Source: an uncultured Chloroflexia bacterium
Lineage (GTDB): Bacteria > Chloroflexota > Limnocylindria > Limnocylindrales > CSP1-4
Length of the DNA stretch: 64,000 nt
NCBI GenBank assembly: GCA_963764515.1
Contig: CAVXSS010000001.1
Span: 991,672 to 1,055,671, forward strand
Direction: 5' to 3'
Shown here: positions 42,172 to 56,512 of the stretch, in pieces
Layout: the number at the start of each line of letters is the position of its first letter
Numbering within the stretch: the stretch's first letter is position 1
The notes under the pieces: model-generated
What the model was told of the DNA's origin: nothing
Databases searched by the model: none
Seen by the model: only the letters and a program-made list of their open reading frames with translations
Made by a program: the position numbers and the translations under genes

Positions 42172-42954
42172 CTATCGCCCGACGGTCCGCACCACCCCCG
42201 ACATCAGCTTCGTGGCTCGTCGAGCCGCCGTCGGCGACAGGCGCGAGAGCGCATCGACCAGGTCCAGGACGTCGGCGTCGTCGAGGCCGCCGAGCAAGTC
42301 GAACAATCGCAGGATGGTGGCATCGGGGACGCGTCCGAGCAGTCCCAGCGACCGCTCCAGCTCGCGAGGCTCCAGCTGGGGGACGAGCCCGAGTGCTCGA
42401 TCGAAGAGGCGGACGAAGACGAGGAACGCCGCGAGCCATTCGCGCAGCGCGGCGAGCTCGCGATCGTCGGGGTCGGCGGCGAGGGCCGCCGCCGCCTCGC
42501 GCTCCTTCGCTTCAAGGACGACGACGATCGGATCGCCCTCGCGGACCTTCCGTTCGGCGATAACTCGGCCAAACCACTGCCAGTGGTCGCCGACGGCAAG
42601 GTAAGCCGTCCCAGCGGGCCCACGCCGACCCACGCGTCGGGGCTCCTTGACGCGCTCCACGATCCCCCACAATTCGGCCTCGGCCAGGGCGAGGCTGGCG
42701 GCGCGATGGGACAGGCCCAGCGCCTCGCGAACCTCCCGCTCGGTCAGCGGCTCCTGACGCGCCATCAGGTAGGCCTGGACGCGCGCGATCGCGGGCGTGA
42801 CGCCCCAGGCCGCGCCCATCTCCCCCCACGCGGCTGCGAGTTCGAGCCTGATGGCCTCGGCGGTCGTCGCCGGGTACCCGTTCGACGACGAAACCGGGCC
42901 CGCGCGTTCGTGCGCAGAAAGATGCGCCTTGACAGTAGCGAGTTTTTGGTCCAT
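42172..42954 (-). CDS. GbsR/MarR-like transcriptional regulator
   Basis: WGEMGAAWGVT..IARV..YL; winged HTH (SLALAEAELWGIV); start uncertain. Confidence 0.8.
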   Translation of the reverse strand: MDQKLATVKAHLSAHERAGPVSSSNGYPATTAEAIRLELAAAWGEMGAAWGVTPAIARVQAYLMARQEPLTEREVREALGLSHRAASLALAEAELWGIVERVKEPRRVGRRGPAGTAYLAVGDHWQWFGRVIAERKVREGDPIVVVLEAKEREAAAALAADPDDRELAALREWLAAFLVFVRLFDRALGLVPQLEPRELERSLGLLGRVPDATILRLFDLLGGLDDADVLDLVDALSRLSPTAARRATKLMSGVVRTVGR

Positions 42955-46567: not shown

Positions 46568-46593
46568 CGCGGCGAGGGACTATCCTCGCGGCC

Positions 46594-48192
46594 ATGCCCG
46601 TCCTGCGCAGTCGCCTGGACCCGAACGCCCCGGAGACCCGCGCGAACCACGACGCCATGTGCGATCTCGTCGCGGGGCTCCGCGCTCGCCAGGTGGATGT
46701 CGCCGGACGCGGCGCCGGCGGCGACGAGTCCTCCATCGAGCGCCACCGCGACCGCGGCAAGCTCCCCGTCCGCGAGCGGATCGAGCGCCTGCTCGACCCG
46801 GGTTCGGCATTCCTCGAGCTTTCCCCGCTCGCGGCCACCGGGCTCTACGACGACGACGCGCCCGGCGCCGGCATCGTCACCGGCATCGGCCGGATCGAGG
46901 GCACGACCTGCGTCGTGGTCGCCAACGACGCGACCGTGAAGGGCGGCACCTACTACCCGATGACCGTCAAGAAGCACCTGCGGGCGCAGGAGATCGCCCT
47001 CGAGAACCGGCTCCCCTGCCTCTACCTCGTGGACTCCGGCGGCGCGTTCCTTCCGCTCCAGGCCGAGGTCTTTCCCGATCGCGATCATTTCGGGCGGATC
47101 TTCTACAACCAGGCGCGGATGTCGGCCGCCGGCATCCCGCAGGTCGCCCTCGTCATGGGCTCGTGCACGGCCGGCGGTGCGTACGTCCCGGCGATGAGCG
47201 ACGAGACCGTCATCGTCAAAGGGACGGGCACGATCTTCCTGGGCGGTCCGCCGCTGGTCAAGGCCGCCACCGGCGAGGAGGTCACACCCGAGGAGCTCGG
47301 TGGCTCGGACGTCCACACCCGGCTCTCGGGCGTCGCGGACCACGAGGCGCTCGACGACGAGCACGCGCTCGCGCTAGGCCGGTCGATCATCGCCAACCTC
47401 AACCGGAAGGCGCCCGAACTCCCCTGGGATCGGACGGAGCCCGAGTCTCCGGCCGTCGATCCTGCTGGCCTCTACGGGGCGGTCTCGCTGGACGCGCGCC
47501 GGCCGATCCCGGTCCGCGAGATCATCGCCCGGCTGGTCGATGGCTCGCGGTTCCACGAGTTCAAGCCGCGCTACGGCGAGACGCTCGTGACCGGATTCGC
47601 GCATCTCGCCGGCTATCCGGTCGCGATCGTGGCCAACGACGGGATCCTGTTCGGCCAGTCCGCGTTGAAGGGCACGCACTTCATCGAGCTCGCGTGCCAG
47701 CGCCGGATCCCGCTCGTCTTCCTCCAGAACATCACCGGGTTCATGGTCGGGCGCGAGTACGAGGAGGCCGGCATCGCCAAGGACGGGGCGAAGCTCGTGA
47801 CCGCGGTCGCATCGGCGGAGGTCCCGAAGTTCACGGTCCTCATCGGGGGCAGCTTCGGGGCCGGCAACTACGCGATGGCGGGGCGCGCGTACCAGCCGCG
47901 CTTCCTGTGGTCGTGGCCGAACAGCCGCATCTCGGTCATGGGCGGACAGCAGGCGGCCCGCGTCCTGTCCACGGTCCGTGGCGGCTTCGCTGGGGACGCC
48001 GAGCGAGACGCGTTCGAGGCGCCGGTCCTCGAGACGTACGAACGCGAGGGCTCGCCGTATTTCGCGACGGCTCGCCTCTGGGACGACGGGATCATCGACC
48101 CGCTCGACACGCGCCGGATCCTGGCGATGGGCGTCGAGGCGGCACTCCACGCGCCGATCCCGGAGACGCGCTTCGGGGTCTTCCGCATGTGA
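46594..48192 (+). CDS. liuB: 3-methylcrotonyl-CoA carboxylase beta (carboxyltransferase) subunit
   Basis: [31 protein letters not shown] and FGVFRM motifs. Confidence 0.95.
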
Positions 48193-48243
48193 GGTCCAGG
48201 TCCGCTCGGACCGCCGGTGTCGTGGTCCGGTAGCATCGCGGGG

Positions 48244-49020
48244 ATGCCCCGTGTCAGCCGCCTGAACATCGCGCCGGTGCGCAGCCTCGGGCTGGAGTCG
48301 CGTGACGAGATCCGCGTGGAAGCGAAGGGCGTTGTCGAGGACCGACGGTTCTTCGTCGCCGACGCGGACAACCGGCTCGTCGACCAGCTGATCGCCGCGG
48401 CGATGGTCCAGGTCTCCGCCTGGACCGATCCCGACGCAACGGTCCTTCGGCTCACGTTTCCCGATGGCCGCGTCGTCGAGGACGGCGTGCGCCTGGCCGA
48501 GCCCATCGAGACGCCGATCCATGGCCGGACCGGGGTCGGGCACGTCGTCGATGGGCCTTTCGCGGCCGCGCTCGGCGAGTTCCTCGGGAGGGAGGTACGC
48601 GTCGTTCGGTGCGACCGGCCCGGAGGGACGCGGGTCAAGAGCCCGGTCACGCTCGTCACCGACGGTTCGCTCGCCGTCCTGGGCGCCGCGCTCGGGGTCG
48701 GGGCAGTCGACGCCCGCCGGTTCCGGATGCTGGTCGAGCTCGAAGGCGGCGGTCCCCACGAGGAGGACACCTGGGTCGGCGGGCGGATCGGACTTGGCGG
48801 GACGATCCTGCGCGTCAGCGGCGCGGTGCCGCGCTGCGCGATGACGACCCACGACCCGGACACCGGCGACCGCGACCTCGACACGCTGCACGCCATCAAG
48901 GCCTATCGCGGCCTGGTCGACGGCAAGGACCTGATGTTCGGGGTCTACGGCGAGGTGGAGCGACCGGGCACCATCCGGCTCGGCGACGAGGTGACGATCC
49001 TCGGGCCTCAGCCCGCCTGA
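48244..49020 (+). CDS. MOSC domain protein
   Basis: PVRS..DRRF, RRFR..V, EDTW and PRCAMTT motifs. Confidence 0.88.
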   Translation: MPRVSRLNIAPVRSLGLESRDEIRVEAKGVVEDRRFFVADADNRLVDQLIAAAMVQVSAWTDPDATVLRLTFPDGRVVEDGVRLAEPIETPIHGRTGVGHVVDGPFAAALGEFLGREVRVVRCDRPGGTRVKSPVTLVTDGSLAVLGAALGVGAVDARRFRMLVELEGGGPHEEDTWVGGRIGLGGTILRVSGAVPRCAMTTHDPDTGDRDLDTLHAIKAYRGLVDGKDLMFGVYGEVERPGTIRLGDEVTILGPQPA

Positions 49021-49666: not shown

Positions 49667-50416
49667 TCATCTCGGGCGAACGATCCACCGGCAGCCGAGG
49701 AGATCGGCCTGATGGGCTGACGCGCCAGCGATGCCCAGATGGATGGTCGTCGGGGGTGTCCGATCGTCCCGGGACGGACGGAGTCGAAGGATCTGGGCAC
49801 CGATGCCGGCATCGCGGGCTCCCCCGCCGGCCAGCGAGGGCCGGAACCGCAGGCCGGTCGTCCGCAGGAACCGCCCGATGGTCGCGCTGACGTCACCGAC
49901 CGCGATCTCGAGCGTCGTGAGCTGAGCCGGCCCGGCCGCGCGGGCCGTCCGGTCGGCGGGCGTCCACTCCGCGGCCGCTGCGTCGTGCTCGATCAGGAAC
50001 GGCGGCAGGGCTGGGTCGAGTCGCCCGGCGGCCGACAGCCGCCAGCGGACGAGCCGGCCGTCCGGCCGCACCCGCTCGCCTGGGGTCGGGTCCGCCAGGT
50101 CCGAGCCGCGTTCGCGCAACGTCCGGACATCGTCATCGATGGCGTCGCTCGCGATCGCCCACGTCGCCAGTCTCCCGCCGGCGGCGAGGGCGCGGAGCGT
50201 CGGAGCGCCGACCCAGGAGCTCGCCGCGAGGTCCTGGTCGAAGACGCCCATGAGCTCGAGGTACGTGTCGCCAAGCCAGACGAGGCGATTGAACGTGCCC
50301 AGCCGTTCGTGACGGCCGCCCCCGCCAGGCACGAGTCCGAGGGTCGCCTCGAGATCCGACGCGGCCCCGTCCGGATCCGCGACGGCGATCACGAGGTGGT
50401 CGATCGCGGTCAGCAC
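49667..50416 (-). CDS. VOC / glyoxalase-like family protein
   Basis: IDHLVIAV, GGRH..GTFN, YLEL and PFLIEH motifs. Confidence 0.88.
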   Translation of the reverse strand: MLTAIDHLVIAVADPDGAASDLEATLGLVPGGGGRHERLGTFNRLVWLGDTYLELMGVFDQDLAASSWVGAPTLRALAAGGRLATWAIASDAIDDDVRTLRERGSDLADPTPGERVRPDGRLVRWRLSAAGRLDPALPPFLIEHDAAAAEWTPADRTARAAGPAQLTTLEIAVGDVSATIGRFLRTTGLRFRPSLAGGGARDAGIGAQILRLRPSRDDRTPPTTIHLGIAGASAHQADLLGCRWIVRPR

Positions 50417-50459
50417 GAACGGAGCCTACCCGGTCCCGTCCGGTCGCTACGATGGGCCG

Positions 50460-51272
50460 ATGAGCCCCGCCATCCGCGTCGAGCGCCAGGGTCCCGATGG
50501 CACGGTCGTTCGTGTCACCCTGTCCCGTCCCAAGGCGCATAACGCCTTCGATGCGACACTCGGGGCGGACCTGCGCACGACATTCGCGGCACTGGCGCGC
50601 GAGGCGCCGACCGCCTTGCGGGTGGTGGTCCTGGCCGGCGACGGCCCCTCGTTCTGTGCCGGAGCCGACGTCGATTGGATGCGCGCGGCGAGCGCGCTCG
50701 ACGTCGAGGGCAACGAGCAGGACGCGATGGGCATGGCCGACATGTTCGAGGCCATCGACACGTGTCCGGCGCCCGTCATCGCGCGCGTGCACGGCGCCGC
50801 GCTCGGCGGCGGCATGGGACTCTGTGCCGTCGCCGATCTCGTGATCGCGGAGAGCGGCACGCGCTTCGGGTTCTCCGAGACGCGGCTCGGCATCCTGCCC
50901 GCGGTCATCTCGCCGTTCGTCATCGCCAAGATCGGCGAGAGCCAGGCGCGCGCCCTGTTCCCGAGCGGGCGTCGGATCGATGCGGTCCGGGCTCAGCGGA
51001 TCGGCCTGGTCCACGAGGTCGTCGAGGGAGAGGAGGCCCTGGATCGCGCCGTGGACGCCGCCGTCGCGGACGTGCTGATGGCCGGACCGACGGCGGCGCG
51101 CGCGGCAAAGGCCATCGTTCGTGAGGTTCGCGGCCTCGGCCACGGCGCCGCGAAGTGGCACACGGCGCGGGTCATCGCCCGCCAGCGCGTGACGGACGAG
51201 GCTCGCGAGGGATTCGCCGCATTCGACGAGAAGCGCCGTCCGAACTGGGCCCCCGAGCCGGGCCCCGACTGA
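50460..51272 (+). CDS. liuC: Enoyl-CoA hydratase (probable methylglutaconyl-CoA hydratase)
   Basis: FCAGAD, ALGGGMGL and ETRLGILPA motifs; liu context. Confidence 0.88.
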   Translation: MSPAIRVERQGPDGTVVRVTLSRPKAHNAFDATLGADLRTTFAALAREAPTALRVVVLAGDGPSFCAGADVDWMRAASALDVEGNEQDAMGMADMFEAIDTCPAPVIARVHGAALGGGMGLCAVADLVIAESGTRFGFSETRLGILPAVISPFVIAKIGESQARALFPSGRRIDAVRAQRIGLVHEVVEGEEALDRAVDAAVADVLMAGPTAARAAKAIVREVRGLGHGAAKWHTARVIARQRVTDEAREGFAAFDEKRRPNWAPEPGPD

Positions 51273-51355
51273 CGCGATCGAGGCCCCCTCCGGGCGCTGG
51301 CGACCGATCACGCGGCTAGCAAGTCGGCACGGGAAATGCGACACTCGCGACAGAC

Positions 51356-53365
51356 ATGACCGAGGAGTTGGCGCCAAGCGAGGTCGCGCGGCGCCTGGGA
51401 ACGTCGACCCGGACGGTCCAACGGTGGATCGCGCACGGCGTCCTGCCCGCCAGGAGGGTCGGAGGACGTTGGCGTGTCGCGTTTGACGCGTTCGACGTAT
51501 CGGCAGCGCCCGATGAGCGGTCACCGGCGACGATCGGCACGCTGTTCATCGCGAACCGCGGGGAGATCGCCAGGCGAATCGAGCGCACCTGCCACCGCCT
51601 CGGGATCCGGGCCCTCGTGCCCGAGACGGACGGCCCGACCGCCCTGGACCTGCTCGACGCGGAGGCCGTCGTGGCGGCGGCGCTCGCGAGCGGTGCCGAC
51701 GCGGTCCACCCCGGCTTCGGATTCCTCGCGGAGAACGCGGACTTCGCCGGACGCGTCATCGACGTGGGCGTCCGCTGGGTCGGACCGCCGCCCGCCGCCA
51801 TTCGCGCGATGGGCGACAAGGCGGCCGCGCGACAGTTGGCGGCCTCCCTCCGAATCCCGGTGCTCGCCGGCTATGACGGCCCGGACCAGGCGGACGGCAC
51901 CCTTGGGGCCGCGGCGGAGGTGATCGGATACCCGTTGCTCATCAAACCGGCCGCGGGCGGCGGCGGCAAGGGGATGCGGGTCGTCCACGAACCTGCCCGC
52001 CTCCTCGACGCCCTCGCCGCGTCGCGGCGCGAGGCGCATGGGGCGTTCGGCGACGATCGCCTCATCCTCGAGCGGTACGTGGAGGGGGCGCGTCACGTCG
52101 AGATCCAGGTGCTGTTCGATGCCAACGGGGCGGGCATCCAGCTCGGTGAACGCGACTGCTCGATCCAGCGCCGCCACCAGAAGATCCTCGAGGAGAGCCC
52201 GTCACCGGCAGTCGACGCCGGCCTGCGCCAACGCCTGGGCGAGGCGGCCCTGACCCTCGCACGCGCGGTCGGATACGTGAACGCCGGCACGTGCGAGTTC
52301 CTCGTCGACGAACGCGGCGAGCCGACGTTCATGGAGATGAACACCCGGCTCCAGGTGGAGCACCCGGTGACCGAGCTCGTCACCGGGCGGGACCTGGTCG
52401 CCGACCAGCTCCGGATCGCGGCCGGCGCACCGCTCGGCGTCCGGCAGACCGGGATCCGGCACGCCGGCCATGCGATCGAGGTCCGCCTGTATGCCGAGGA
52501 CGCTGAAGACGAGTTCCTGCCGGCGATCGGACGCGTCGAGGCCCTCCGCTGGCCGGCGGGAGACGGCATCCGCGTCGACGCGTGGATCGATCTCGGAACC
52601 AAGGTCGGTTCGCAATTCGACCCGATGCTCGCGAAGATCATCGCGTGGGGCCATGACCGCGAGCAGTCGCTGGCGCGGCTGACGGTCGCGCTCGACGAGA
52701 CCCTGGTCCTCGGACTCGTGACGAACCTGCGGTTCCTGCGCTGGTTGGTGCGGCAGCCGGTGGTCCAGGACGGGTCCGCGCGGACCGATACGCTCGAGAG
52801 GATCTGGCCGCCGGACGACTGGCACGAGCGCGCGTCGATCCCTGACGCCGCGTGGGCCGCGGCGGCCGCCCTTCTCGCGGCATCGAGCGCGACCGGAACG
52901 ATCGACGACCCGTGGTCCGGTGGCTGGCGCCTCAACGGCGAACGACGACTCCGGCTGGAGGCCGACGGCCTCATCCGATCGGTCGCACTCGATGGCGAAG
53001 CAGCGGGGTTCGAGGCCGTCGCGGTCGACGGGTTCGTGCACGTCGACATCGCCGGTCGGAGCGTTGCGTTCGAGCTCGCGCCGGCCCCCGACGTCGATCG
53101 GGCCGCGGCCGCCGCTCGCACGGGTCACGGGATCGGGATGGCGAGCGGTCCGGCTAGCCTCGTGGCCCCGATGCCGGGCACGGTCCTCGCCGTCCACGTC
53201 GAGGTTGGCGGGAAGGTCGCGACCGGCGATGCGGTCGTGACGCTCGAGGCGATGAAGATGGAGCACGTGGTCGTCGCGCCCGTGGCCGGTCGCGTGACCG
53301 AGCTCCGGGTCCGGCCAGCCGACCAGGTGGTGCGCGGCGAAGAGCTCGGGCTCATCGAGCCCTGA
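51356..53365 (+). CDS. liuD: MCC alpha subunit (biotin carboxylase + BCCP) with an N-terminal excisionase/MerR-type HTH
   Basis: HTH EVARRLGTSTRTVQRWI..G.LPARRVGGRWRV; ANRGEIA, GGGGKGMR, EMNTRLQVEH and EAMKM motifs. Confidence 0.92.
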   Translation: MTEELAPSEVARRLGTSTRTVQRWIAHGVLPARRVGGRWRVAFDAFDVSAAPDERSPATIGTLFIANRGEIARRIERTCHRLGIRALVPETDGPTALDLLDAEAVVAAALASGADAVHPGFGFLAENADFAGRVIDVGVRWVGPPPAAIRAMGDKAAARQLAASLRIPVLAGYDGPDQADGTLGAAAEVIGYPLLIKPAAGGGGKGMRVVHEPARLLDALAASRREAHGAFGDDRLILERYVEGARHVEIQVLFDANGAGIQLGERDCSIQRRHQKILEESPSPAVDAGLRQRLGEAALTLARAVGYVNAGTCEFLVDERGEPTFMEMNTRLQVEHPVTELVTGRDLVADQLRIAAGAPLGVRQTGIRHAGHAIEVRLYAEDAEDEFLPAIGRVEALRWPAGDGIRVDAWIDLGTKVGSQFDPMLAKIIAWGHDREQSLARLTVALDETLVLGLVTNLRFLRWLVRQPVVQDGSARTDTLERIWPPDDWHERASIPDAAWAAAAALLAASSATGTIDDPWSGGWRLNGERRLRLEADGLIRSVALDGEAAGFEAVAVDGFVHVDIAGRSVAFELAPAPDVDRAAAAARTGHGIGMASGPASLVAPMPGTVLAVHVEVGGKVATGDAVVTLEAMKMEHVVVAPVAGRVTELRVRPADQVVRGEELGLIEP

Positions 53366-53620: not shown

Positions 53621-54547
53621 GTGGGCGAGCACGTCAGGATCTACGAGGTCGGGCCGCGCGACGGCCTCCAGAACGAGTCGACCGCCGTCCCGACCGCCAC
53701 CAAGGCCCAATTCATCGAACTGCTCGTGGACGCCGGCCTCCGCGAGATCGAGGCCACCTCGTTCGTCTCGCCACGAGCCATCCCGCAGCTGGCCGACGCG
53801 GAGGAGCTCATGGCCGCGCTCGCCCGCCAGGGGGGCGTGCGCTACCCGATCCTGGTCCCCAACGAGCGAGGCATGGCGCGCGCCGAGGCCGCGGGTGCGG
53901 ACGCCGTGGCCGTCTTCACGGCCGCGAGCGATGCCTTCACGAAGGCGAACATCGGGATGACGATCGCGGAGTCGATCGCCGCGTTCAGGCCGGTCCTCGC
54001 GCGCGCGGGCGAGCTCGGCTGGTGGCGGCGTGCGTACGTCTCGACCGCGTTCGGGTGCCCGTACACGGGACGGGTCGAGCCACGGGCGGCCGTGGACGTC
54101 GCCCGCCGGCTCCAGGAACTCGGGGTCGACGAGGTTTGCTTCGGGGACACCATCGGCGTGGGCGTGCCAGACCAGGTGGCGACACTCACCGGGCTCGCGG
54201 CCGAGGCGGGGATGTCGCTCGGGCGCATGGCGTTCCATTTCCACGACACCCGCGGGACGGCACTGGCGAACGTCGCAGCCGGCCTGGATGCGGGGGTGCG
54301 CTGTTTCGATTCGGCCGCGGGCGGGACCGGCGGCTGCCCGTATGCGCCGGGCGCGGCCGGCAATCTCGCGACCGAGGACCTCGTCTACTTCCTCGAAGCG
54401 TCCGGCTGGGAGACCGGCGTCTCGCTCGAGGGGGTCCTCGAGGCGGCCCGGTTCATCGCCGATGCGCTCGGCAAGCCGCTCTCCACGAAGGTCGGCCAGG
54501 CCGGGGGCTGGGATCGATCGTCGGGAGCGTCGATCGGCCGCGCGTGA
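53621..54547 (+). CDS. liuE: Hydroxymethylglutaryl-CoA lyase
   Basis: EVGPRDGLQNE, HFHDT and GGCPYAPGAAGN motifs. Confidence 0.95.
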   Translation: MGEHVRIYEVGPRDGLQNESTAVPTATKAQFIELLVDAGLREIEATSFVSPRAIPQLADAEELMAALARQGGVRYPILVPNERGMARAEAAGADAVAVFTAASDAFTKANIGMTIAESIAAFRPVLARAGELGWWRRAYVSTAFGCPYTGRVEPRAAVDVARRLQELGVDEVCFGDTIGVGVPDQVATLTGLAAEAGMSLGRMAFHFHDTRGTALANVAAGLDAGVRCFDSAAGGTGGCPYAPGAAGNLATEDLVYFLEASGWETGVSLEGVLEAARFIADALGKPLSTKVGQAGGWDRSSGASIGRA

Positions 54548-54614
54548 GGCTGTGGGCCACGCCCGTGCCCGCGCGTCGCAAGGTCGGACCGGAGTCTCTG
54601 CTATCTTCCGCGCG

Positions 54615-55130
54615 ATGGACGGCGTCGTTCTTGTCTTGAACCAGAACTACGAACCGCTCAACGTCTGTAACCTGCCTCGAGCCTTCCGTCTCCTGTTCGG
54701 CGAGAAGGCCGAAGTGATCGAGTACGACCACCAGGTGATCCGGACGCCGCGGACGGAGTTCCGCGCGCCCTCCGTCATCCGCCTACAGCACCTCATCCGC
54801 CGGCCGCGACCGCGGGTCAAGCTGTCTCGCCGCGAGGTCTTCGCCCGGGACCGGCACGTCTGCCAGTACTGCGGCCGCCAGGCGCACGACATGACGCTCG
54901 ACCACGTCATGCCCCGGCATCGCGGAGGCGGGCACACCTGGGAGAACCTCGTGACCGCGTGCAAGAGCTGCAACCACCGCAAGGGCGGCAAGACCCTCGA
55001 GGAGGCACGGTTGCGGCTGCTCCGGCCGCCGTTCGAGCCCCGCAACGACATCTACTCGCTGTTCACCCCATACCTCGCCGACGAGAGCAACGAGGCGTGG
55101 CGCACGTACCTGTTCCTGGGACGGAACTGA
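54615..55130 (+). CDS. HNH endonuclease family protein
   Basis: VLVLNQNYEP, RD..CQYCG, TLDHVMP and NLVTACKSCNHRKG motifs. Confidence 0.92.
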   Translation: MDGVVLVLNQNYEPLNVCNLPRAFRLLFGEKAEVIEYDHQVIRTPRTEFRAPSVIRLQHLIRRPRPRVKLSRREVFARDRHVCQYCGRQAHDMTLDHVMPRHRGGGHTWENLVTACKSCNHRKGGKTLEEARLRLLRPPFEPRNDIYSLFTPYLADESNEAWRTYLFLGRN

Positions 55131-56512
55131 CCGCGGCGAGCCCCGAGGCCGCGATCCGGGCGGGCATCCCGGAGCCCGTGCGAGGCCTCCTCGCGACGCT
55201 CTGGGAGGCCGGACACGCCGCCTACGTCGTCGGTGGCTCCCTTCGAGACATCGTGCTTGGCCGCCCGGCCGCCGATTGGGACCTGGCATCCGACGCCCGG
55301 CCGGAGCAGGTGTTGGCGCTGCTGCCCGACGCGGTGTACGAGAACCAGTTCGGGACCGTGGCCGTGCGGCGCGGCGGTGAGGTCTACGAGGTCACGACGT
55401 TTCGCTCGGACCACGACTACGCGGACTTCAGGCGTCCGCACCGCGTGGAGTTCGGCGACACGATCGAACTCGACCTGGCGCGGCGCGACTTCACCTGCAA
55501 CGCCATGGCCTGGGGTGCCCGCGCCCACGGCGCCGGGACGCCCGGGCTCGTGGATCCGTACGGCGGCGCGCCCGACATCGAGGCCCGCCTGCTCCGGGCC
55601 GTCGGGGACCCGCTTGCGAGGTTCGAGGAGGATGCGCTGCGGATGGTTCGCGCGATCCGGCTCGCGGCGACGCTCGATTTCGACGTGGAGCCCGCGACGC
55701 TCGCCGGGATCGGGGCTCGGGCCGGTCTCGTGAGCCACCTGTCGGGCGAGCGGATCGCGACCGAGCTGGACAAGCTGCTCGCCGCCGCGCGCCCATCGAG
55801 CGGTCTGCGCCTGCTGGGCGACACCGGCCTGCTGGCCGGCATCTCGGCCGAGCTGGCATCGCAGCGGGGCATCCCCCAGAACAAGGTCGCGGGAGAGGAC
55901 CTGTGGGACCACACCATGCGCTCGGTTGACGCCAGCCGGGCATCGCGCCCGGTCGTGCGGTTGGCCGCGCTCGTCCACGACATCGGCAAGCCGGCGACCT
56001 TCGCCGACGGCCACTTCATCGGTCACGACACGGTGGGCGCCGACCTCGCCGCGGCGTTCCTGGAGCGACTGCGGTCGCCGCGGGCCGTTCGCGAGCGCGT
56101 CGTGCACCTCGTGCGGAACCACATGTTCAGCTACGAGCCCAACTGGTCGGACGCGGCCGTTCGCCGGTTCATCGCCAAGATGACCCTCGAGGGGACGGCG
56201 ACCGAGGCGCTCGAGGAGCTATTCGACCTGCGCGCGGCCGACAACGTGGGCTCCGGGATGCCGGCCGGGGCCGGCGGCCTCGACGAGCTCCGGGCACGGG
56301 TCGCCGCGGCGCTCAAGGAGGGGGTCGTCCTCGATCGTGCCGACCTCGAGGTCGATGGTCGCGACCTGATGACCGAACTGGGCCTGGAGCCCGGCCCGCA
56401 CCTCGGCCGGATCCTCGACGCATTGCTCGAGCGGGTGCAGGCCGACCCGGCCGTCAACGACCGTCCGACCCTGCTGATGCTCGCGCAGGCCATGCTGGCG
56501 GACGACGCGTGA
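55127..56512 (+). CDS. cca: CCA-adding tRNA nucleotidyltransferase family protein with an HD domain
   Basis: VGGSLRD, DWD, RRDFT.NAM, EDALR, ERI..E and HDIGK motifs; start uncertain (CTG?). Confidence 0.88.

Follow-up and report, generated by a model that had tools for sequence, protein, structure and literature searches.

The stretch of DNA analysed here, referred to as the window, comprises 64,000 nucleotides from an uncultured Chloroflexia bacterium (assembly GCA_963764515.1, contig CAVXSS010000001.1, positions 991,672 to 1,055,671). On its plus strand, at 51356..53365, it carries an open reading frame (ORF) of 669 amino acids (aa) in which a helix-turn-helix (HTH) domain is joined to an alpha subunit of the methylcrotonyl-CoA carboxylase (MCC) type. 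Comparison with orthologs indicates that this fusion is real, translated and under selection. As in trigger enzymes, enzyme and DNA-binding domain lie on one polypeptide. Two short elements accompany the gene. One, O1, lies directly ahead of the start codon; the other, O2, repeats O1 in inverted form within the HTH-coding sequence. The fusion enzyme probably controls its own production, and the best reading, to which we give fair though by no means full credence, is that the protein acts as a trigger enzyme and represses the promoter of its own gene.

A helix-turn-helix domain fused to a carboxylase subunit

The fusion protein consists of an N-terminal winged helix, a linker, a biotin carboxylase (BC) domain and a biotin carrier domain. 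The HTH_17 / MerR-like part (51356..51496, plus strand; aa 1-47) exceeds the cut-offs of both Pfam (HTH_17, PF12728; aa 7-47, 39.9 bits against a cut-off of 27) and NCBIfam (TIGR01764, 'excisionase family DNA-binding'; 38.8 bits against 28.8). It is followed on the same strand by a flexible linker (51497..51535; aa 48-60), the BC domain (51536..52825; aa 61-490) and a BT-like region with the biotin carrier domain (52826..53365; carrier at about aa 600-669). In frame with HTH_17, and within the same ORF, Pfam detects Biotin_carb_N (77.4 bits), CPSase_L_D2 (220.6 bits), Biotin_carb_C (110.7 bits) and Biotin_lipoyl (56.2 bits). The carrier contains the AMKM motif, with K634 encoded at 53255-53257. 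The biotinylation motif EAMKM (aa 631-635) is nearly invariant in the 44 orthologous loci that we read, of which 28, including the window, belong to the window's family (f1) and 16 to a second family (f3) of the same Chloroflexota class, labelled Limnocylindria/Limnocylindrales.

The AlphaFold2 (AF2) model of the whole protein has a predicted local distance difference test score (pLDDT) of 86.7 and matches alpha chains of MCC and propionyl-CoA carboxylase (PCC). Most of the BC domain lies above pLDDT 90, and the linker falls below 50 at aa 48-56; among orthologs the linker is variable in sequence and about 12-35 aa long. The Biotin_carb_N profile matches the protein in two separate stretches. 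The genome encodes two further biotin carboxylases, an ordinary accC with accA, accB and fabZ nearby and a PCC-like enzyme beside a carboxyltransferase and a mutase. Alignment with these two shows that exactly 19 residues, the paralogs' DAGALHVRLADDAVRIGPP segment, are missing from the BC N-domain after about aa 93 (about 51634). The first-pass annotation, made from the window sequence, had described both the in-frame HTH_17 domain and a shortened BC N-domain, and both descriptions are borne out. It had also named translation from a start downstream of the HTH as an outcome that would refute its reading; the window sequence offers no alternative ATG or GTG in frame from codon 1 to codon 80.

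Structurally, the HTH domain follows the winged-helix fold, consisting of a strand (E4-5), two helices (H7-14 and H18-27) and a β-hairpin wing (E32-35 and E38-42), modelled by AF2 at a pLDDT of about 80-92. The top Foldseek match is Xis of mycobacteriophage Pukovnik (PDB: 4j2n; TM-score 0.73-0.78). BldC-DNA complexes align with TM-scores of 0.74-0.83 and a root-mean-square deviation of 1.4-1.6 Å at about 30% identity, and RacA is the third close fold. Sequence searches yield the same three proteins, Xis, BldC and RacA, while the MerR and MerR_1 profiles remain below their cut-offs and align with aa 8-40 only. The contacts described for BldC with DNA are K26, T27, T29, R30, W31 and K33 together with the wing residues H46, R47 and R48, and each BldC subunit is reported to occupy a 9-bp site, with subunits arranged on head-to-tail direct repeats of variable number (PMC5859096). 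In a HMMER alignment these contact positions correspond to R19, T20, Q22, R23, W24 and A26 and, in the wing, to R38 and R40. Across the 44 sequences, R19, Q22, R23, W24 and R38 are invariant and R40 nearly so; at R19, Q22, R23 and W24 the residues are invariant while the synonymous codons vary. The wing reads G-G-R-W-R and has no histidine. Sequence and model thus assign the fused domain to a DNA-binding type, and sequence-specific binding is predicted.

The closest relatives of the HTH sequence (at least 62% identity in a library of 1.8 billion proteins) are nearly all BC fusions wherever a second Pfam domain is visible. The exception is P0170, whose called frame continues from the enoyl-CoA hydratase upstream and so has the hydratase in front of the HTH. 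The next-closest relatives, at 35-47% identity, are proteins of 4-8 tandem HTH_17/MerR-like repeats, such as P0122 (417 aa) and P0130 (1015 aa). These tandem proteins may represent covalent versions of head-to-tail arrays on direct repeats.

The architecture, which the first-pass annotation had read from this one stretch, is conserved in both families. PF12728 is found in 117 of the 120 best database homologs (66-83% identity); of the remaining three, the two that were aligned (P0014 and P0020) have their first residue within the BC N-domain, which suggests truncated gene calls. In a phylum sample of 401 Chloroflexota genomes, a match was obtained in 25, comprising 8 of the 23 genomes of f1, all 16 of f3 and the window's own genome; the other approximately 360 sampled genomes, from 80 families, gave no match. 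The HTH is present in all 25 matching genomes and in frame with the carboxylase in 24 of them; in L070 it is encoded in a different frame. A second set of 80 loci, which shares its source collection with the 44 loci and is not independent of them, is labelled Chloroflexota, Candidatus Limnocylindrales/Limnocylindria or 'uncultured Chloroflexia', apart from one locus labelled Alphaproteobacteria and one labelled Eisenbacteria. An in-frame test, for the domain joined to an enzyme of 610 residues, was passed by 69 of these loci and failed by 11, all of which come from one series of large-contig assemblies. One of the failures, L094, does read through in one frame and was missed by the test. In the other ten (L104, L107, L117, L119, L126, L134, L148, L156, L164 and L167) the HTH and BC parts occupy different frames of an unbroken stretch of sequence, which could reflect indel errors or real two-gene splits.

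Five of the f1 genomes without a fusion match were examined. Four have no ortholog at all, and the fifth, G432, encodes an HTH-less ortholog (L079) at 61% identity. This protein shows the same deletion in the BC N-domain, where a Pro/Ala-rich loop (PTAPGAPGASVPAP) takes the place of the missing residues. The deletion and the HTH are therefore separable, the deletion being older than the HTH or independent of it.

Conserved elements before the start codon and within the HTH-coding sequence

O1 is a 16-nt element, TGCGACAnTCGCGACA, located 0-5 nt before the start codon. In the window it comprises a first half at 51337..51345 (plus strand; TGCGACACT), which has the form of an extended -10 element (TG-n-GACnnT), and a second half, CGCGACA, at 51346..51352 (plus strand), which would span about -6 to +1, with the final A (51352) as the predicted transcription start. 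Each half contains one of the two GCGACA copies that the first-pass annotation had pointed out at 51338-51343 and 51347-51352, 9 bp apart and ahead of the ATG at 51356; both are where it placed them. Conservation of such repeats in orthologs, which it had named as a check, is pronounced. Of the 44 loci, 35 agree with TGCGACnnnCGCGAC at every one of its 12 fixed positions and 40 have at most one mismatch; the base that follows is A in 37 loci, G in 6 and T in 1. The gap between O1 and the start codon is 0 nt in 15 f3 loci and 2-5 nt in 27 f1 loci. At most one mismatch is likewise found in 71 loci of the 80-locus set. Upstream of O1, the sequence and even the identity of the upstream gene vary among loci. 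The exact 15-mer has a single copy in the window and two in the 3.5-Mb genome, and a looser repeat pattern allowing 2 mismatches is found in the window at chance level (12 occurrences against 12.8 expected). The significance of the repeat derives from its conservation in orthologs.

The first half of O1 belongs to a wider class of promoters. In the window's genome (G000), 144 TANNNT hexamers have their last T at -7 relative to a candidate start codon and 99 have it at -8, compared to about 15 at other offsets. Such a pile-up has been described as a signature of leaderless promoters (Zheng et al., PMC3160421), and by this measure leaderless-type promoters are common in the genome. Hexamers of this kind lie upstream of the carboxyltransferase, enoyl-CoA hydratase and HNH endonuclease genes of the window. 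The discriminators of the 144 TANNNT promoters show no base preference, and no -35 signal was found there; an enrichment analysis of 9-mers before candidate starts was too noisy to define a promoter class. A scan of 51100-51700 for canonical -35/-10 promoters and terminators found nothing, and the lack of a canonical -35/-10 match is expected for an extended -10 element without a -35. Of the 15 genomic occurrences of TGCGACAAT/TGCGACACT, nine precede a long ORF, at 6-11 nt from its start codon. As a variant of the extended -10 element, with G for T at -12 and TG at -15/-14, TGCGACA[AC]T recurs before at least nine unrelated genes.

The two halves of O1 differ in their specificity. A position weight matrix of O1 (the O1 matrix) scores 34.6 bits at the fusion gene and 21.9 bits at the next-best site in the genome, the promoter of a SAM-methyltransferase gene (G000 C2:1058440-1058461; L168/L169), which has one mismatch to O1. 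Among orthologs of the methyltransferase (20 fetched), TGCGACAAT is exact in 9 of 10 anchored loci, while the next six bases differ in all. Together with the promoter positions of the nine occurrences, this control shows that the first GCGACA is explained by promoter function, whereas CGCGACA is not, and the comparison marks CGCGACA as specific to the fusion gene. The first-pass annotation had pointed to the 9-bp-spaced GCGACA repeats in connection with possible self-regulation; conserved cis-elements at operator-like places are indeed present, but the first GCGACA is a general extended -10 element. The methyltransferase site was considered as a second member of a regulon and rejected, as its orthologs keep the promoter half only. 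A further match, TGCGACACTCGGGGC at 50552-50566 (plus strand), falls within the hydratase gene, some 800 nt ahead of O1. With 10.0 bits it ranks third among the O1-matrix matches of the locus, and it contains the promoter half only. A small upstream ORF, MRHSRQT*, running from an ATG at 51336 and overlapping the main ATG, was rejected as well, its frame and stop being unconserved and its start being TTG or CTG in two loci.

O2 lies at 51475..51490 on the minus strand (TGTCGCGTTTGACGCG on the plus strand, CGCGTCAAACGCGACA on the minus strand) and is an inverted copy of O1 with two 9-bp-phased units. It is located about 122 nt downstream of O1 and consists of TGTCGCG and a second unit in 9-bp phase. 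When 3.4-kb loci are scanned with the O1 matrix on both strands, 33 of 44 loci (21 of 28 from f1, 12 of 16 from f3) have their second-best match on the minus strand at +121..+133; in L078, which has no O1, O2 ranks first. TGTCGC is present at +121..+127 in 37 of 43 loci and at +121..+143 in 77 of the 80 loci of the second set. In f1, O2 is encoded by R-V-A-x-D-A. The arginine codon is CGT in 26 of 28 f1 rows, although CGT is rare elsewhere in these genes (191 of 2541 Arg codons), and the third base of the x codon is always T over five different amino acids. In f3, where V-S-R-S-S-L is the encoded peptide (TGTCGCGTTCGTCGCT), the same word sits 2 nt away from its place in f1; on the opposite strand it reads AGCGACGAACGCGACA and agrees with O1 at 13 of 16 positions. 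The rare codons and the different amino acids in the two families point to selection on the DNA (or RNA) word, which shapes the protein at the end of the wing.

The first-pass annotation had also described a second 9-bp-phased run at 51476-51502. Its TGTCGC, which is GCGACA on the opposite strand, is found at 51475-51480 and its first two units are conserved, whereas the third unit (GACGTATCG) is not conserved among orthologs and follows from an amino-acid repeat. Further GACGCG units in f1 may follow from D-A repeats alone. A synonymous-site entropy scan, restricted to columns with at least 80% identical residues, gave no low-entropy window. It missed O2 because f1 and f3 encode O2 with different residues; the codon tables revealed it. 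A search of five exceptional genomes for GCGACNNTCGCGAC with 1 mismatch was uninformative, as such matches are far too common in GC-rich coding DNA.

Natural variants show how the domain and the two elements occur together. The HTH-less G432 keeps the ACAAT hexamer 6 nt before its GTG start; at the unit positions it has GCCAC and CAGTG, and it has no GCGAC units. L078 has the HTH and a perfect O2 with no O1, and its start codon abuts the stop codon of the upstream gene. The HTH occurs without O2 in L074, L075, L059 and L060. The latter two, from one genus of f3, instead carry three tandem 9-bp-phased GCGAC units, GCGACaatcGCGACgtgcGCGAC, reaching codons 2-3 (V-R-D), which by sequence comparison is a lineage-specific rearrangement of the sites. 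Where O1 varies (GCGCCA, CACGACA, GCGTCA), no compensating change is seen in O2.

This last observation bears on an explanation at the RNA level, in which O1 would be only a promoter, a long-range O1-O2 stem in read-through transcripts, with the start codon and the HTH-coding region enclosed, would control translation or stability, and the HTH would act elsewhere or be unrelated to the elements. In the minimum-energy RNA fold of 51325-51505, O1 pairs with O2 as 6+2+7 base pairs, and 84.1% of cells are paired across 41 orthologs; read-through is conceivable, as the hydratase gene ends 83 nt upstream in the window and directly at the start codon in L078. However, pairing amounts to 84.8% in shuffled controls and no pair is changed on both sides, which weakens the RNA model, with little variation being available for this comparison. 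The fold has a z-score of -0.57, and Rfam returned no family match, only a chance-level hit to isrL (E 0.64). Transcription from the predicted A would moreover leave O1 outside the RNA, and a stem explains neither L078, with its perfect O2 and no O1, nor the two loci in which a third direct unit replaces O2. We therefore regard this explanation as distinctly unlikely.

The inverted arrangement could also be that of a recombination substrate, with the 16-nt repeats bounding an invertible or excisable segment of about 105 bp, or being the remnant of an insertion through which the HTH was acquired, and the HTH acting as a directionality factor. The repeats flank the HTH-coding segment almost exactly, and the domain is of the excisionase family. 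Yet the orientation is the same in all 44 + 80 loci, no recombinase gene lies nearby, neighbourhoods differ among loci, and L059 and L060 have direct units only. Conservation across two families with well-diverged synonymous sites argues for a standing function and not a relic, and such a substrate is extremely improbable.

Candidate autoregulation by the fusion enzyme

We postulate that the fusion enzyme represses its own promoter through a BldC/Xis-like winged helix tethered to the N-terminus of the MCC alpha subunit. RNA polymerase would use the extended -10 element TGCGACAnT and start at the A of the adjacent CGCGACA, yielding an mRNA that would be leaderless in f3 and have a leader of 2-5 nt in f1. 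The tethered HTHs of the oligomeric enzyme would bind the 9-bp-phased nGCGACA units head-to-tail, as BldC does. At O1, their binding would mask both the -10 element and the start site; at O2, a second pair of units would be bound in opposite orientation at +122. Occupancy would shut off the enzyme's own promoter by occlusion, possibly assisted by an O1-O2 loop of about 130 bp or by a roadblock, and the outcome would be negative autoregulation. The transcription start, the role of the HTH as binder of the elements and the repression itself are what we infer from the sequence. In solved MCC holoenzymes, including the 750-kDa holoenzyme of P. aeruginosa, the alpha subunits are oligomeric, so that several HTHs would be available for cooperative binding, for a loop of this size or for a roadblock. 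More speculatively, free, unassembled or unbiotinylated alpha could be the active repressor, matching alpha to beta or to the supply of biotin. In a bolder version, which we consider doubtful, a holoenzyme of the 750-kDa class would itself be the transcription factor. Several tethered HTHs of one alpha oligomer would bridge O1 and O2 in the ~130-bp loop, and binding would depend on enzyme state, for example on whether alpha is unassembled or beta-bound, on whether the carrier domain is apo or biotinylated, or on domain movements driven by substrate.

Several points weigh against repression by the fusion enzyme. A search for sequencing runs covering the locus returned 17 runs of DNA type (best share 0.37) and no RNA run. 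The first half of O1 can be explained by promoter function alone, which makes the first unit of the apparent direct repeat weaker than it looks. The occurrence of L078 without O1, and of L074, L075, L059 and L060 without O2, implies that neither site is obligatory, and the HTH-less control is the single genome G432. The wing lacks a histidine and the sites are GC-rich, whereas BldC reads an AT-rich minor groove via His46. O1 and O2 are complementary to each other and pair in the RNA fold, which leaves room for a role at the RNA level. All loci stem from related metagenome-assembled genomes, so that the counts do not represent independent events. Finally, O1 and O2 could be bound by another transcription factor.

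In the last case, a separately encoded factor would act on the sites, and the fused HTH would bind other DNA, such as many promoters of the TGCGACA type or the nucleoid in general, or serve protein contacts within the holoenzyme. Single GCGACA units are available genome-wide, given the TGCGACA[AC]T promoters before at least nine other genes. HTH_17 domains are known in non-regulatory proteins, for example terminase small subunits, and the 19-residue deletion leaves a changed surface on the BC N-domain. The gene-specific elements, however, are found only at genes encoding the fused HTH, the single HTH-less ortholog being without them, and O2 lies inside the HTH-coding sequence itself. The DNA-contact residues of the HTH are invariant. 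A role in protein contacts fits poorly with the linker, whose variability and low model confidence are what a tether, not a docked domain, would show, and the HTH-less ortholog also has the N-domain deletion, which indicates that the deletion is not compensated by the HTH. Binding by another factor is an unlikely explanation, and autorepression by the fusion enzyme remains our preferred one.

Gene neighbourhood, relation to known systems and implications

The alpha subunit gene lies among genes of leucine catabolism. Upstream, on the plus strand, are a carboxyltransferase gene of the MCC beta type (46594..48192; Carboxyl_trans 484 bits) and an enoyl-CoA hydratase gene resembling methylglutaconyl-CoA hydratase (50460..51272; ECH_1 152 bits); downstream, on the same strand, is a hydroxymethylglutaryl-CoA (HMG-CoA) lyase gene (53621..54547; NCBIfam NF004283, 371.4 bits against a cut-off of 246; Pfam HMGL-like). 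The best solved relative of the carboxyltransferase is the MCC beta subunit of P. aeruginosa (3u9r, 742.6 bits), compared to 435 bits for geranyl-CoA carboxylase beta and about 250 bits for PCC beta. The alpha chain matches P. aeruginosa MCC alpha (3u9s) with 441 bits over aa 59-661, and its best solved sequence relatives include the MCC of M. smegmatis (9yx0). No full-length NCBIfam model reaches its cut-off with the fusion protein, and all NCBIfam matches of the hydratase stay under their cut-offs. The fusion protein is filed as an MCC-type alpha subunit on account of the MCC-beta-type carboxyltransferase and of the hydratase and HMG-CoA lyase genes that flank it; its sequence does not prove the substrate specificity.

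Within 43.4-56.5 kb, no isovaleryl-CoA dehydrogenase gene was found among the ORFs scanned, and Pfam detected no separate transcription factor, in agreement with the first-pass annotation, which had seen no separate regulator in the cluster; the sole hint is a sub-threshold MarR_2 match at 42172-42954. The same annotation had proposed that the carboxylase regulates the genes of its cluster. This may hold for its own gene, where the elements lie, but only this gene carries the sites, as the gap between the best and next-best matrix scores shows. The carboxyltransferase gene has its own leaderless-type promoter, TATCCT-N7-ATG (TATCCT at 46581-46586), and the hydratase gene has TACGAT-N6-ATG (TACGAT at 50448-50453). 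The remaining genes of the cluster are served by promoters of their own and lack such units. Regulation would therefore be confined to the alpha subunit, pointing to a control of subunit balance or biotin demand more than to pathway induction. Between the MCC beta and hydratase genes, a MOSC-domain gene (48217-49020, plus strand) and a Glyoxalase_3 gene (49667-50416, minus strand) split the leucine cluster. Beyond the lyase gene follow a small HNH endonuclease gene (54615-55130, plus strand), with TATCTT at 54602-54607 before its start, and a gene of the CCA-adding/poly(A) polymerase family with an HD domain (55127-56512, plus strand), whose chosen start overlaps the HNH gene by 4 nt.

In concept, the fusion is analogous to trigger enzymes such as BirA, PutA and RbkR, with a DNA-binding style like that of BldC or Xis. 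BirA and PutA are textbook examples of metabolism feeding back directly on transcription, and enzyme-repressors are few. BirA acts as a biotinyl-AMP-induced dimer on a palindromic operator and controls biotin synthesis genes, not primarily itself. It shares with the fusion a place in biotin-dependent metabolism and a winged-helix DNA-binding domain at the N-terminus; unlike the fusion, it is a ligase, and its HTH belongs to another family. PutA and RbkR share with the fusion a catalytic and a DNA-binding domain on one chain and an operator at the pathway's own promoter. Their folds and enzymes are different, and their substrate or redox switch has been shown experimentally, whereas for the fusion such a switch is hypothetical. 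BirA has been described as a group II biotin protein ligase and repressor of the bio operon (PMC4016012), and the archaeal RbkR as a riboflavin kinase/regulator (PMC5397151).

BldC of Streptomyces, after which a family of MerR-like winged-helix proteins is named and which is its founding member, has the same fold as the fused HTH, lacks the MerR coiled-coil and has aligned equivalents of R30, W31 and the wing arginines; its 9-bp units find a counterpart in the candidate sites, which are 9-bp phased with two or three units. In contrast, BldC is a free pleiotropic regulator of 68 residues that recognises AATT-N4-C with a wing histidine, while the fused domain forms the N-terminus of a 669-residue enzyme, its candidate nGCGACA units are GC-rich and separated by only A-A/C-T, and a single gene carries them. 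The fusion, being neither a free small protein nor a histidine-bearing reader of an AT-rich groove, is accordingly not filed as a BldC family member. LiuR is a MerR-type regulator of leucine/isovalerate catabolism genes in Proteobacteria, a dimer with an effector domain that acts at palindromic operators on the whole liu operon. It resembles the fusion in linking a MerR-superfamily HTH with liu/MCC genes. The fusion, however, is not a separate full-length MerR protein with coiled-coil, effector domain and palindromic operator; it has a minimal winged helix attached to an enzyme, direct and inverted 9-bp units with the second site 122 nt away, and one gene as its candidate target. Xis proteins, for example lambda Xis, bind direct-repeat arrays head-to-tail. 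Unlike excisionases, the fused domain sits on a metabolic enzyme, and no integrase, attachment site or mobile element lies near it; the pipeline name 'excisionase family DNA binding protein' is misleading for these fusion proteins. Full-text literature searches of articles, supplementary files excluded, returned no description of an HTH-carboxylase fusion and no biotin-dependent carboxylase among trigger enzymes. The 'helix-turn-helix' mentioned in an MCC paper denotes a structural motif of the beta subunit (PMC12776079).

If our reading is true, the fusion would be the first biotin-dependent carboxylase among enzyme-repressors, as far as the literature searches show, and a BldC-type 'monomeric' winged helix would have been recruited as an enzyme appendage. 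The literature searches found no regulatory element for Limnocylindria, a widespread soil and freshwater class, and O1 and O2 are candidates for its first defined promoter/operator pair. For genome annotation in this clade, leaderless promoters of the TGCGACAnT/TANNNT kinds can guide the placement of start codons. The operator would lie in the coding sequence of its own reader and would shape both codon and amino-acid choice. Should the holoenzyme itself be the transcription factor, the operator would have co-opted the promoter -10 and be partly written in the codons of the domain that reads it, and the enzyme would let the cell sense leucine-catabolic demand or biotin supply directly.

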